Shown: piece after piece, positions 1 through 59,088 of the stretch
How positions within the stretch are numbered: the stretch's first letter is position 1
How the letters are laid out: each line of letters begins with the position of its first letter
Assembly: GCA_046292385.1 (NCBI GenBank)
Contig: JBKBRF010000043.1
Span: 1 to 59,088 of the forward strand
Direction: 5' to 3'
Source of the DNA: Armatimonadota bacterium
GTDB lineage: Bacteria > Armatimonadota > SYMT01
Length of the DNA stretch: 59,088 nucleotides
Notes under the pieces: generated by a model
Databases searched by the model: none
What the model saw: the letters and a program-made list of their open reading frames with translations, nothing else
What the model was told of the DNA's origin: nothing
Position numbers and translations under genes: made by a program

Positions 1-60
1 GCGAGCGATGCGGCAAAACCTTCCTGCGCCACCAGCGGCGTAACTTTACAGCGTGTGACA
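1..60. mobile_element. Terminal fragment of an IS-like element (ends ...GTGTGACA at 60); terminal inverted repeat ~10-60
   Basis: Reverse complement of 10-60 matches 58986-59036 at 44/51 nt (first 21 nt identical: TGTCACACGCTGTAAAGTTAC). It is followed by CAAG and the right half of a REP palindrome. No transposase in the window. Confidence 0.75.
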
Positions 61-160
61 CAAGCCACCGCACTCCACAGACTTCCCCGACGCAGTCTCC
101 CTTTCGACGAGAGGGAATCTCTTCCGGGCTAGCCTGTGGAGTGCGAATGCTTGCTTTCGC
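61..160. repeat. REP-like palindrome doublet (interrupted copy 61-83 plus inverted copy 134-160)
   Basis: GCACTCCACAG (70-80) and CTGTGGAGTGC (134-144) are inverted. The second copy reads GCGAAAG-CAAG-CATTCGC-ACTCCACAG on the minus strand. Same family as 51426-51493. Confidence 0.7.
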
Positions 161-351
161 GCCCCGCGCCAGCGGGGCACCGGAGAAGCTTCCCGATTTC
201 GCCAACAGTATCCTTGCGCGGCCCTTCTTTCGACGTGAAGTCGCGGTCGCCCGGAGTGCTCACCTGCCGGTCGCAGTCGCGAGCCGGTACAGCGCAAACG
301 GGAGCAGCCGCAGCCGCTCCCGTTCCGAAATGCTCTGCTCCCGCGCAGGAG

Positions 352-879
352 CTACGGCGCGCGGAAGACCTGCGTGAACATGTAGCGCCCGTCCTTCAGG
401 TGGATCCCCACCCCGGTCTCGCTGAAGTTCCGGTTCATGATGTTCTCGCGGTGTACCGGGCTGTTCATCCAGGCACGGACCGCGTTCTTCGCCAGGTCGT
501 TCGGGTTGGTGGTCCAGTAGAGGTTCTCGCCGATCCACGACCAGCCGACGCCCGCATTCGCAAAGCGGTCGGTCATGTCCTCGCCGTCCGGGCTGACGTG
601 GGAGAAGAAGTTCTCCTCATTCATCTGCTTGCTGTACCGGCGGGAGATCTTCGCCATGGCGTTGTTGTTCTTCAGCGCCGAGCGCTTCTTCTTCTTGCGC
701 TCCTTGTTGATCAGCTTGACCACCTGAAGCTCGATGGCGGCAAACTTCTTGCCCTCCAGCTCCACCCGCTCCGCCGGGCGGGAAGCGGCGGCGTCGAGGG
801 GGCGAGCGGCAAGCGGAAGGCAAACGGCAGAAGCGGCGAGCAGCAGCACACCGGCGCGCCAGGGAGAGACCTTATTCAT
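352..879 (-). CDS. Secreted CAP-domain (SCP/Ag5/PR-1) protein
   Basis: Signal peptide; motifs FFSHVSPDG, IGENL, WMNSPVHRENI, GVGI. Confidence 0.9.
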   Translation of the reverse strand: MNKVSPWRAGVLLLAASAVCLPLAARPLDAAASRPAERVELEGKKFAAIELQVVKLINKERKKKKRSALKNNNAMAKISRRYSKQMNEENFFSHVSPDGEDMTDRFANAGVGWSWIGENLYWTTNPNDLAKNAVRAWMNSPVHRENIMNRNFSETGVGIHLKDGRYMFTQVFRAP

Positions 880-1111
880 CAACTACAACTCCGAGTCGGG
901 GATCGGCCGGAACGGCCCACGGCACTTGATAGCGCGCCAGGCCGGTGCCTGCCAGCTCACGAGTGAGGGACTCGCATTTCACCCGCACCCTGAGTTATCG
1001 GATCGGGAGATGACCGGCTTTAGGCCCGGCGCCGGTCAATCGTGCCGGGAGCGCCCGCCAGGCGCCACGAGACTCAGGAGGTCTGATCCGAACGGGAAGG
1101 CGCGGATCGGA

Positions 1112-1735
1112 TCACGGCCGGCGGAACACCTGCGTGGCGTAGACCGTCTCCCCTTCCCTCCAGACTCCGATTCCGGTTTGAGTGAACTGGGGGCGCAGGA
1201 TGTTCTGCCGGTGCCCGGGGCTCTTCATCCAGCCCTGGACGGCAGTCTCGGCCGGGTTGTCGATCCGCCACGACTTGTATAAGTTTTCGCCGATATAGCT
1301 GTACCCGAGCCCCGCTTGCCGGAAGCGGTCCTGCAGATCCTGCCCCTGCGGAGAGACGTGCCCGTAGAAGCTCTCCCTCGCCATCTGGCGGCTGTAGCGC
1401 CGCGCCATCTGCGAGAGCTGCGGCACCGGCTCGAGCGGCTGGAGCCCCGCCTCCCGCCGCCGCTGGTTGATGCCCTCAAGGATGCGCTGCTCGATCCTGC
1501 GGGTCTGCTCGCTCTGGGGCTGAGCGCCGGTTGACGACGAAGAGCGGTCGCTGCCGGATTGGTCCTGCCGCAGCCGGCTGGAGGACGAATCGCGCTCCGG
1601 CGGCGCGGGTGCGTTCCGCGGGGACGGCTGGCGCGGCGCCATCTCCATGCGCGTCACGCAGCCGCCGGTGAGCAGCAGCGCTCCGGCCACGCCGGTCCCG
1701 GCGAGCAGTCTTCCCAGCCTCTGCACTGTCTGCAT
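1112..1735 (-). CDS. CAP-domain lipoprotein
   Basis: Lipobox LLLTGGC; motifs GHVSPQG, IGENL, WMKSPGHRQNIL, TQVF; paralogue of the adjacent gene. Confidence 0.9.
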   Translation of the reverse strand: MQTVQRLGRLLAGTGVAGALLLTGGCVTRMEMAPRQPSPRNAPAPPERDSSSSRLRQDQSGSDRSSSSTGAQPQSEQTRRIEQRILEGINQRRREAGLQPLEPVPQLSQMARRYSRQMARESFYGHVSPQGQDLQDRFRQAGLGYSYIGENLYKSWRIDNPAETAVQGWMKSPGHRQNILRPQFTQTGIGVWREGETVYATQVFRRP

Positions 1736-1783
1736 GCGCGCCTCCCGGCCGGGTCTTACCCTGGCTCGATGCGGGGCACTCGC

Positions 1784-2677
1784 TCACTCGTGGCGGCCGT
1801 GGCCGCGGAGCTCGTGAGTCTCGTCGGCCATCGGATCGAGGGTCGGGTCCGGCGGAAGCACGCCGTAGCGGCGCAGCAGCTCGCGCATCGCCTGCGTGAG
1901 CACCATAGCGCTGACCCCCGCCCAGAGCAGGACGCCGACGATGAACGTGCCCCAGCAGACTGCGGTGAAGACGAGCAGCAGGACGCCGAGCAGGAGGGTG
2001 TAAACCAGGTTGTCGAGCACCAGGAGGGCCGACTTCTTCAAGATGGCGCGGGTGGAGATCTCCTGCTCCGCCAGCAGCGGCCAGGCGTAGCACGCCATCA
2101 GCAGCCAGAAGACGAGCAGATAAGCGAAGAGAGCGCCGATCACCAGCACCACGGGGTGCCGCGACGACAAATAGAACGCGGCGTTGCCGGCCAGCAGCAG
2201 CGCGGCGCCGGCCTGGAGACCGGCCAGGGCCAGGCTCCGGCCGGCCGCGTGCCGCACGCCCCATGCCAGGTCGAACAGCTCCGGCTCGCTCCGGGCGGCG
2301 GCGTTGCGGCAGAACCGGAAGATCCCGGCCGCGAGCGGTCCCCCGATCAGGACCGCCGCGAGCGTGGCGAGCAGGACCGTCGAGGCGAGGGAGAGCGGCC
2401 CGGGAAGACCGCGGAAGAGCTGCAGCCCCAGCGCCACCGCGCCGAGGCTGCCGAAGCCGAGTGCCGCCGACCAGAGAAAGCTCTGGAGCAGCACGGTCCC
2501 GAGGTAGTCGTAGGCATCCCGCACTCCCAGCCGGAGCGCCAGGGTGAGCCGGGGCCGCGGGAGTGGTCGCCCGGCGCCGCCCGGCGGCTCCTCATCCGGC
2601 GCCGGGGGCGACTCTTCGCGCGGCTCCGTCCGCACGATCTCGCCGTCCGGCCCGCGCCGCCACATCCGCTCCGGCAT
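1784..2677 (-). CDS. Integral membrane protein, DUF624/YesL-like
   Basis: About 6 hydrophobic helices; GPLAAG...F and ILKKSALL motifs resemble DUF624; start overlaps the upstream stop at 2677. Confidence 0.6.
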   Translation of the reverse strand: MPERMWRRGPDGEIVRTEPREESPPAPDEEPPGGAGRPLPRPRLTLALRLGVRDAYDYLGTVLLQSFLWSAALGFGSLGAVALGLQLFRGLPGPLSLASTVLLATLAAVLIGGPLAAGIFRFCRNAAARSEPELFDLAWGVRHAAGRSLALAGLQAGAALLLAGNAAFYLSSRHPVVLVIGALFAYLLVFWLLMACYAWPLLAEQEISTRAILKKSALLVLDNLVYTLLLGVLLLVFTAVCWGTFIVGVLLWAGVSAMVLTQAMRELLRRYGVLPPDPTLDPMADETHELRGHGRHE

Positions 2678-50018: not shown

Positions 50019-50068
50019 CACGCAGGTACTGCCGGTGAGGACGAGCGGCACTCCCGTCTTCCACCCCA

Positions 50069-50225
50069 GTCATCCTGACCGACAGGGAAGGATCTCGGCA
50101 GCCGGACTGGGACGGAACACGCAAGCGGGTGAAGCGGACTCTACCGTCGGTTCCCCTCCGCGCGCCAGGCCTCCCGCTCCGGCACCGAGGGGGTGACGTA
50201 GACCCTTCACTGCGTTCAGGGTGAC
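50069..50225 (-). repeat. 157-bp palindrome-ended element, copy 3 (solo, inverted)
   Basis: GTCATCCTGACCGACAGGGAAGGATCTCGGCAGC ... GTGACGTAGACCCTTCACTGCGTTCAGGGTGAC. Confidence 0.8.
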
Positions 50226-50477
50226 TGGGGTGGGGCTCGAGGGCGGCCGCGTGTTTCCCGGCATGACACCGGCTCCCGCACATCAGCGCCTTCGGCAGCC
50301 CCGTCCGAAGCCCTCGTGCTCCTGGCGAAGCTCATCCCCCTAATCCCCAATTCCATCCCCCCATCTCCTGAACTGGTTCGGAATGTCAGCGCAGGAAATG
50401 AGCTCCCCTCCGGGCAACGGACGCTGGATGCCGCCTCGCCGGGCTGATGAGGCGGCGGCTCCGTTATCCAGGTAAGC

Positions 50478-51299: not shown

Positions 51300-51425
51300 C
51301 CCTGCCGCTGAGTTCGCAGCGCCCCCCGCACAAAGCGCGGCTCCGCAGGCTAAGACAGACTCAGTCCGCGGACTCTGGAACCCGGAAGGCCGCTCCGGTG
51401 GCCCAAAGGGAGACGGCCACGGTGC

Positions 51426-51493
51426 AGTCTGTGGAGTGCGGTGGCTCGCCACCGCTTCCCCGCCAGGGGAAACTCGCCGGAGTAGTCGGCCGC
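51426..51493 (-). repeat. Intact REP-like element (empty IS target)
   Basis: Minus strand CCGGCGAGTTTCCCCTGGCGGGGAAGCGGTGG-CGAG-CCACCGCACTCCACAGACT matches the joined flanks 58950-58985 + 65-83. Confidence 0.85.
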
Positions 51494-51666
51494 CGGGGCT
51501 CCTCCTGCCCCGCAGAGTTCGCCCTCCCATCTAGCGAGGGCGCGGGGTGGAACCTCGGGGAGAAGCCGCTCCCGCCAGGAGGCAATACGGACCCGCCAGG
51601 CCGCCGCCAGGGCAAGTTAGAGGTTGGAAGTCCGGCAAGCGGGTGATAGAAGTGACGGGGAAACTA

Positions 51667-58688: not shown

Positions 58689-58936
58689 GGTTCTCCTCCG
58701 CGGGAAGATTGGCCGGCGAGCAGGCACTTCCCTGCCGGTCGCCGAGCACCTTCACACTAAGACTGCACAACAAATGGAGTTCCGCACTGAGCAGCCAGCA
58801 CAAACCCGGTTCCACCCACCGCCGGAAGCCAACGGCGTCCGGAGGGACAGCCGCAGGCTGTGCCGGAGGACGCCCCTTGTGACCGCCCCTGGGCCCAGAT
58901 ACCGGCGGCGAAATCAGGGGCCCGGGAAGGTCACTA

Positions 58937-58985
58937 GCGGCCGAGCCATCCGGCGAGATTCCCCTGTCGGGGAAGCGGTGGCAAG
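58937..58985 (+). repeat. Left half of REP-like element ending in the CAAG loop
   Basis: GCGGCCGA...CCGGCGAGATTCCCCTGTCGGGGAAGCGGTGG-CAAG; homologous to the reverse complement of 51445-51493. Confidence 0.8.
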
Positions 58986-59088
58986 TGTCACACGCTGTAA
59001 AGTTACACCACTGGCGGCGCAGGCGAGATTTGCCGCCGTCCGCGGTTCGGGAGGGGCGGGAAAAGCTCGGCCGCCTTCGTTTCCCCAT
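58986..59088. mobile_element. Terminal fragment of an IS-like element (starts TGTCACAC...)
   Basis: 58986-59036 is the inverted-repeat partner of 10-60 and is preceded by CAAG. Confidence 0.75.

Follow-up and report, generated by a model that had tools for sequence, protein, structure and literature searches.

An IS481-like insertion sequence and a matching miniature element share a REP hairpin as target in an Armatimonadota bacterium

The contig JBKBRF010000043.1 of an Armatimonadota bacterium (assembly GCA_046292385.1, GTDB lineage SYMT01), analyzed here over its whole length of 59,088 nucleotides ("the window"), begins and ends inside mobile elements that interrupt a short palindrome of the repetitive extragenic palindromic (REP) type. 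We conclude, with a probability of about 0.85, that two separate insertions bound this contig, one of an insertion sequence (IS) present in about 27 copies and one of a 349-bp MITE (a miniature transposable element with inverted repeats), and that the two share one REP hairpin as their target. The source assembly (G000) comprises 7.04 Mb in 91 contigs with 69% G+C, and the window is its entire contig C43.

Element ends inside a REP hairpin loop

Both window ends carry element termini of the TGT...ACA type, each next to CAAG and a single arm of the GCGGTGG-CAAG-CCACCGC palindrome. On the left, positions 40-60 read GTAACTTTACAGCGTGTGACA and are followed by CAAG (61-64) and CCACCGCACTCCACAGACT (65-83); on the right, GCGGTGG-CAAG occupies positions 58975-58985 and TGTCACACGCTGTAAAGTTAC starts at 58986. 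A comparison by hand of 58986-59036 with the reverse-complemented stretch 10-60 finds the two termini identical at 44 of 51 positions. A preliminary description of this DNA had placed an IS-like element within a REP palindrome's loop at both window ends, with termini matching at 44/51 positions and an empty site near 51426-51493. The termini, the CAAG and the arms are all seen as it described them, the 44/51 identity was reproduced, and the empty site has its intact hairpin core at 51438-51455.

The first 60 nt of the window (1..60, + strand) constitute the right end, here called type A1, of a high-copy IS481-like IS whose body lies upstream of the contig, and they match 25 other A1 contig ends exactly. 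This end includes the C-terminus of a transposase (2-43, + strand), with its last 13 residues (..RAMRQNLPAPPAA) and a TAA stop codon at 41-43 within the inverted repeat, and the A1 terminus at the contig start (..GTGTGACA, + strand) has its last base at position 60. The opposite end of the window (58986..59088, + strand) is a terminus of type A2, likewise of the right-end kind, that belongs to a MITE of about 349 bp and stops with the contig 103 nt inside the element. Three other A2 contig ends share its sequence exactly, and the assembled MITE at G000:C59:24198-24546 matches it with 98% identity over 60 nt.

These termini recur throughout the genome. We found 79 matches with at most 3 mismatches, 61 of them no more than 130 nt away from where a contig stops, and 61 of all 182 contig ends (about one third) stop in such a terminus. 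The 61 contig-end termini fall into four types (A1, 26; B1, 27; A2, 4; B2, 4), each 100% identical to its own type over the compared stretch of up to 60 nt. Read from inside to outside, the A1 end translates to ERIVGLQVAHPRPPSRKRAMRQNLPAPPAA with a stop codon inside the inverted repeat, and A1 ends match the C-terminus of the transposase of a related element (locus L020, described below) with 71-79% identity over 26-31 residues in tblastn. Since A1 carries the transposase C-terminus and its stop codon, the full IS has A1 on its right and B1 on its left, and the nearly equal counts of A1 and B1, like the equal counts of A2 and B2, are as expected for two kinds of element. In a search of the assembly, the 31-nt tails of the deepest A1 and B1 ends, which belong to the full IS, were found at contig ends only, and the tails of A2 and B2 also match internal MITE-like copies.

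The interior of the IS was not found in the source assembly, in which the transposases of its relatives match just 26-31 C-terminal residues at A1 ends and one unrelated, weak hit by tblastn. As DNA, the A1 end matched only the source genome among 41 genomes (the source and 40 relatives), apart from one weak match of 30 nt. Among the sequencing runs, all sampled words are present in run X1, probably the source itself and thus no independent evidence, and 25-47% of them in six other runs. The read data yielded short (Logan) contigs. A 375-nt contig of X1 that covers window positions 1-61 has a word depth of 1824.6 compared to 50.5 for a contig of unique flank, a measure that is not a copy number and is consistent with tens of IS copies. 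Contigs bearing the same IS end also occur in runs X2 and X3. Over window positions 1-2000 the Logan contigs, with patchy cover in X2, X3, and X5, neither bridge positions 60/61 nor show the site empty, which is a neutral result.

The flanks of the element ends are not random. GCGGNNNCNNG directly adjoins the terminus at 60 of the 61 contig-end junctions (background 0.0018 per position), GCGGNNNCWWG at 51 of them (background 1.0e-4 per position), and the exact GCGGTGGC(A/T)(A/T)G (GCGGTGGCWWG) at 43. The four nucleotides next to the terminus are CTTG at 26 contig ends, CAAG at 26, CGAG at 4, CTCG at 3, and CTGG at 2, and the tallies of CTTG and CAAG are as expected of a duplicated CAAG loop that is read from both sides. 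On the basis of these 61 flanks, the CAAG at window positions 61..64, where the IS meets its flank, is one of the two copies of the 4-nt hairpin loop produced by target-site duplication. Both flanks are available for five assembled insertions: the duplication is perfect in three of them (CTTG/CTTG, CAAG/CAAG, and CGAG/CGAG), has one mismatch in the fourth (CAAG/CGAG), and has two mismatches in the fifth (CAAG/CTTG), which is an old, nested copy. Both orientations of the elements occur with a bias of around 2:1, A1 standing beside the right arm in 18 and beside the left arm in 9 cases, and B1 beside the left arm in 14 (plus 4 short-type sites) and beside the right arm in 9.

The preliminary description had stated that insertion occurs exactly in the 4-nt REP loop with a 4-bp duplication, and this agrees with the perfect duplications of 3 of 5 assembled miniature copies and with 60 of 61 junctions lying at the same hairpin position. 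Its suggestion that the repeat broke the assembly is likewise supported by the 61 of 182 contig ends that carry these termini. It had further proposed two independent, base-identical insertions of one element with the two termini as its two inverted repeats; the separate insertions stand, A1 and A2 coming from different elements, but the base identity and the pairing of the termini do not, both being of the right-end type.

The target hairpin, REP1, lies in a repeat of about 237 bp that has terminal inverted repeats of its own (GATACTGTTGGCGAAATC) and additionally contains an inverted, diverged hairpin, REP2 (GCGAATG-CTTG-CTTTCGC). REP1 and REP2 pair with each other in single-strand folds, which makes the repeat a doublet similar to REPINs (REP doublets forming hairpins). 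A profile-based nhmmer census of the source genome gave 114 loci after removal of overlaps. The loop is intact at 36 of these (about 20 long copies and about 16 short variants consisting of the hairpin only), and 30 left halves end and 32 right halves start at the loop; intact exact REP1 cores number 19. The window holds the right half of one copy at 61..212 (+ strand; model positions ~85-236), with the right arm of REP1 (CCACCGC) at 65-71, the inverted REP2, and the outer inverted repeat ..GATTTCGCCAACAGTATC. The left half of another copy lies at 58898..58985 (+ strand; model positions ~1-88), with the left arm of REP1 (GCGGTGG) at 58975-58981 and the loop or duplication CAAG at 58982-58985. 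The empty site is an unoccupied partial copy at 51399..51523 (minus strand; model positions 10-134) that reads GCGGTGG-CTCG-CCACCGC on the + strand, i.e., with a CGAG loop in the orientation of the repeat. Identity between the flanks of contigs C43, C28, and C2 is confined to the repeat and does not extend beyond it, so that there is no larger duplication.

REP sequences are short, GC-rich palindromes that recur between genes and also flank the gene of their associated transposase. The label "REP" is justified by a gene for a REP-associated tyrosine transposase (RAYT) at G000:C83:9667-10392 (L028:1267-1992, minus strand; NF047646 REP_Tyr_transpos, 93.4 bits with a cut-off of 80), which has a REP2 module and the REP1 hairpin GCGGTGG-CAAG-CCACCGC on both sides in the same orientation. 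These two flanking hairpin copies also bear out the earlier naming of the palindrome. Two other genes of Y1-transposases strongly pass PF01797 (C51:25920-26261 and C22:55627-55965), and three matches are weaker (on C40, the RAYT gene of C83 itself, and on C5). Rfam has no match on the window or the empty site.

Altogether, the source genome contains 68 perfect hairpins with 7-bp stems and a 4-nt CAAG/CTTG loop, nearly all of them with GCGGNNG stems and covarying arms; the variable stem bases are most often TGG (15), GAG (10), CAG (10), AAG (10), and TAG (8). The REP sub-families GCGGTAG/CTACCGC, GCGGCAG/CTGCCGC, GCGGAAG/CTTCCGC, and GCGGGAG/CTCCCGC (examples at G000:C16:14429-14470, C11:30514-30579, and C51:8049-8107) have compensatory stems around a constant CAAG loop, suggesting that the hairpin is selected or copied as a unit.

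The elements discriminate sharply among these hairpins. GCGGTGG stems account for 59 element ends compared to 19 intact cores, corresponding to an occupancy of about 60%, whereas other GCGGNNG stems account for 9 element ends compared to 38 intact hairpins, an occupancy of about 10%; insertions with other stems also include short hairpin-only variants (GCGGTAG, GCGGCAG, and GCGGGAG). None of 44 exact copies of the REP2 hairpin is occupied despite the shared loop and their location in the same repeats. The contrast in occupancy and the empty REP2 copies show that the elements do not simply choose hairpins in general: targeting needs GCGG at the base of the stem and favors TGG beside the loop.

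Assembled copies of the miniature element measure 349 bp on contigs C59 and C56 and 357 bp on C22, and C6 has an insert of 348 bp. They sit in the same hairpin loop with ends of the A2/B2 type, A2 pairing with the left-end type B2, and four more identical copies break contigs. We call this element a MITE because it is short, lacks a transposase, has IS-like termini (A2 matching A1 at 44/51 positions), shares target and duplication with the IS, and is present in several copies. The genome also holds a second MITE-like family, a palindromic unit of about 158 bp whose ends are ..CCCCAGTCATCCTGAACG.AGTGAAGGATCT. One copy lies in the window at 50068-50226, and 81 matches occur genome-wide, e.g., at G000:C2:70710-70868 and C18:45572-45729. 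This unit of about 158 bp forms the core of the 349-bp A2/B2 element, so that the MITE consists of IS ends wrapped around another repeat.

Transposase type and frame break in related elements

A scan of metagenome contigs with the pattern of the terminus gave 10 loci, two of which (L011 and L020) encode relatives of the transposase and the other eight do not. L011 is a complete element of 1478 bp with perfect inverted repeats of 36 bp, inserted in a different palindrome between GTCAGGCT-GGAA and AGAA-AGCCTGAC. L020, complete at about 1.4 kb, lies in the same REP arm as the elements of the source genome, between GGAGTGCGGTGG-CTTG and CTTG-CTGCCGCACTCC. Their proteins are 43-46% identical and have helix-turn-helix domains followed by an rve-type core; each element has one transposase gene, and no IstB was seen.

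Searched as separate halves, the L011 and L020 transposases have a colinear match only to the IS481 model. When L020 is read through the frame break described below, it gives one IS481 match (NF033577; residues 10-275, model positions 2-261 of 284) with 110.4 bits and an E value of 1e-31, compared to 44.7 bits for ISNCY_2, 37.8 for IS630, 25.5 for IS21, and 25.0 for IS3. Similarly, the naturally fused relative P0110 (418 aa) reaches 111.5 bits with IS481, and it passes Pfam rve (PF00665). The NCBIfam cut-offs are 224 bits for IS481 and 160 bits each for IS21 and IS3; neither L020 nor P0110, the two relatives used for this comparison, reaches the curated IS481 threshold. Because this threshold failed, we describe the clade, judging from model scores, as IS481-like and closest to IS481 and do not file it as a plain member of that family.

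Other relatives are distant. The nearest annotated plasmid genes are rhizobial transposases of the IS481 family with 25-30% identity, and a brief look at the ends of two rhizobial loci gave no clear hairpin target, with inverted repeats at the ends of one (L024) and none found for the other (L023). A protein search across the phylum matched 2 of 401 genomes, both distantly (30-35%) and with unbroken genes, and the flanks of the one inspected (L021) contain no palindrome. Scanning genome contigs with the terminus pattern gave a single match on a cyanobacterial contig, which lacks a related transposase and is read as chance. Viral contigs searched with the family alignment yielded no relatives, and solved structures gave no sequence match. 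A protein atlas and a cluster look-up supplied no informative names or taxa. The source genome itself has a separate, unbroken IS481-like gene at G000:C14:46439-47236 (NF033577, 65.1 bits; open frame of 426 aa) without the TGTCACACGCTGTAAAG terminus, and it was not detected with the proteins of the clade.

Members of the IS481 family are described in ISfinder as carrying their transposase in a single uninterrupted open reading frame (ORF). This trait was not found in L011 or L020, both of which shift to the +1 frame at GTT TYC CCC CCA (L011:655-669; L020, reverse strand, ~1027-1041). The break falls within the catalytic core, after its first acidic residue and before its second, and skipping one C makes both proteins colinear residue for residue with the fused P0110 (EVFP/LRLW compared to EVFP/QYHW and EVSP/HGRW). 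The nucleotides of the break are seen in these two DNA sequences, and protein-level surveys point to the same arrangement more widely. Among the 120 best homologues, 119 comprise only the second frame (ORF2; 163-267 aa) and come from contigs of mostly 1-2 kb. Of 261 representative clusters with E <=1e-30, the best 150 include 13 fused, 7 unclear, and 130 ORF2-only proteins. In the frame of ORF2, [FLIS][SFP]P, the signature of a T/C run, stands at the junction in 27 of 33 split-type relatives with an N-terminus extending that far, and the fused-type relatives (n = 17) read (V/I/A)F(P/A/D). The break at the T/C run may represent programmed +1 recoding. No case of +1 recoding in the IS481 family was found in a literature search or in the parts of PMC3711429 used here.

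The two overlapping frames of the transposase in L011, L020, and most relatives are reminiscent of the IS3 family, and an assignment to that family, beside IS1397, ISKpn1, and ISPsy8, could also draw on ends of the TG..CA type, a duplication of few base pairs, and the targeting of REP loops as in IS1397 and ISPsy8 (PMC1525189). The transposases of IS481 and IS3 are related, and the IS3 model does give a weak match. We nonetheless regard this assignment as unlikely, given that this match amounts to 25.0 bits (cut-off 160) compared to 110.4 bits for IS481 and that the frame shift is +1 instead of -1 and falls within the catalytic core rather than separating a DNA-binding OrfA from a complete OrfB.

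Alternative readings of the window ends

Several observations weigh against two insertions of an IS481-like element and its MITE at a shared hairpin. No contig or read bridges either window junction, and the empty form was not seen in another sample. L011, one of two relatives with available DNA, lies in a different palindrome and has an imperfect GGAA/AGAA duplication, and the duplications are imperfect in 2 of 5 assembled insertions of the source genome. The IS481 score is only about half of the NCBI cut-off, and the proposed type of the transposase in the source genome rests on some 30 C-terminal residues, the end motifs, and two relatives.

If the window ends were instead the two ends of a single insertion, the contig would be circular or misjoined through one copy of the element. 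This would fit with the complete REP1 hairpin that is rebuilt when the flanks are joined by one CAAG, and no linking read or contig was obtained. However, around 30 copies are interrupted at this one point, so that any left half plus any right half rebuilds the hairpin. The two termini are of different types, A1 and A2, that are both of the right-end kind, and A1 holds the stop codon of the transposase; A2 has its own partner, B2, in the assembled 349-bp MITE. The balanced counts (A1 26/B1 27 and A2 4/B2 4) moreover provide no excess A ends from which a hybrid element bounded by A2 and A1 could be made. The repeat halves at the two window ends also match poorly in their outer inverted repeats (GATACCGGCGG versus GATACTGTTGG), a weak argument in that some intact copies mismatch too. 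Taken together, these points make a single insertion very unlikely.

Still less probable is that the hairpin arms belong to the mobile unit, either as an IS with REP-like ends or as a REPIN-IS composite moved by RAYT, and do not represent a pre-existing target. The existence of 19 exact intact cores with a single loop speaks against this, as do flanks that carry on as the two halves of the ~237-bp repeat whichever way the IS is oriented and insertions in short hairpin-only variants with other stems. It could account for the same flanks being found on almost every copy, for the occupation of most GCGGTGG-type hairpins, and for the presence of a RAYT, but the loop is duplicated, as expected for insertion by a DDE transposase.

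The IS21 family, whose members encode an IstA transposase and an IstB ATPase helper on elements of around 2 kb or more, had been considered in the preliminary description and shares with the present element its TGT ends, a duplication of 4 bp, and long inverted repeats that contain repeated sub-terminal motifs (in B1, CTGTAAAG / CTTTACAG), but it is hardly tenable for complete relatives of 1.4-1.5 kb (1478 bp and ~1.4 kb) that have one helix-turn-helix and rve gene, no second gene for IstB, and IS21 scores of 24.5-25.5 bits (cut-off 160) compared to 110-111 for IS481.

Possible mechanism and relation to known systems

Two insertions at a shared hairpin can be combined into the following model. 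An IS of about 1.4 kb with about 27 identical copies, TGT...ACA ends, inverted repeats of about 50 bp, and a transposase with helix-turn-helix and rve (DDE) domains, together with a 349-bp MITE bearing diverged copies of the IS ends, integrates at the dyad of GCGG(T/n)(G/n)G-CAAG-C..CCGC, which forms part of the RAYT-associated, REPIN-like repeat of ~237 bp. A transpososome with two-fold symmetry may dock on both arms of the palindrome, which would explain the use of both orientations. Strand transfer would take place at both borders between stem and loop, with an offset of 4 bp, and repair would then duplicate the loop. That so many copies are identical suggests that the IS transposes replicatively (copy-out, paste-in), like the related IS3 family. 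The IS copies of the source genome would presumably encode the same full transposase as the relatives, and the MITE was probably moved in trans. The data above establish where the elements insert, that the loop is duplicated, that both orientations and a preferred stem sequence are used, how many copies there are, the connection to RAYT, and which kind of transposase the relatives have.

At somewhat less than even odds, we tentatively propose more broadly that these elements represent a widespread, undescribed, and mostly metagenomic IS481-like clade in which a programmed +1 shift (GTT TYC CCC CCA) in the catalytic core, without which no active transposase would be made, is linked to integration at the dyads of RAYT-type REPs. 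IS and MITE would then be parasitic on a population of REPs and REPINs, with about 60% of the preferred sites filled.

Targeting of REP sequences is listed for the IS3, IS110, IS4, IS256, and IS5 families by Tobes and Pareja (PMC1525189), and the term IS481 is absent from the part of their text used here; our literature search found no paper describing REP-loop targeting by IS481 members. The closest parallel are IS1397, ISKpn1, and ISPsy8 of the IS3 family, which also have an rve-type DDE transposase in two frames, insert at a fixed point of a REP hairpin, and duplicate a few base pairs (3 bp in ISPsy8), with all copies per genome being located in REPs (PMC1525189). Unlike these, the element described here is IS481-like (110 compared to 25 bits), with a +1 break in the catalytic core, a duplication of 4 bp, and a non-proteobacterial host in which about 27 copies sit on roughly 60% of the preferred hairpins.

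IS621, ISPa11, ISPpu9, and ISPpu10 (IS110 family), ISRm22 (IS4), and ISRm5 (IS256) share a strict or strong association with REPs (PMC1525189) but use unrelated types of transposase or recombinase. ISRm22 inserts at the axis of its palindrome with a 6-bp direct repeat, and members of the IS110 family mostly lack terminal inverted repeats and have no direct repeats (ISPa11) or direct repeats of 2 bp (ISPpu9 and ISPpu10; PMC1525189). With the IS481 family, the present element has in common the best-scoring model over nearly its full length, TGT...ACA ends with inverted repeats, and a duplication of 4 bp that falls within the family's range of 2-15 bp (PMC10045372). It differs in that most family members give 6-bp duplications (PMC10045372), that the score is about half of the cut-off, and that the gene is split in most relatives. 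A +1 frame change is also required for the full-length transposase of the IS1447 subgroup of IS3, where it is achieved by transcriptional slippage (PMC6211511); IS1447 slips on a run of A, whereas the break here lies at a T/C run (GTT TYC CCC CCA).

The behavior itself is hence already known from IS1397 and ISPsy8, and what is new are the lineage, the host, the saturation of sites, the matching MITE, the link to RAYT, and the frame break. REP-loop targeting thereby gains an IS481-like lineage from a distant phylum with unusually clean numbers. The use of REP1 and the complete avoidance of REP2 amount to a natural specificity experiment on how a DDE transposase reads a palindrome by sequence, structure, or both. 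Since the target is tied to RAYT, two mobile systems interact here, with the IS colonizing REPINs, and the element accounts for a third of the contig breaks in the assembly. The conserved +1 break in the catalytic core would, if programmed, constitute an unusual control of transposase production.

Two further loci of the source genome carry diverged or degenerate forms of these elements. From G000:C2:197828 onward (L001:829-), a solo, diverged A1-like end stands beside a REP right half without a partner end within 6 kb and is probably a remnant of deletion or recombination; a neighboring ORF has a prepilin N-methylation motif and DUF1559. At G000:C15:120870-121560, a degenerate element of 689 bp with CAAG on the left and CTTG on the right occupies a REP1 loop and contains at least 2 nested copies of the second MITE family, and it represents either an old composite or the recombination product of two oppositely oriented insertions.

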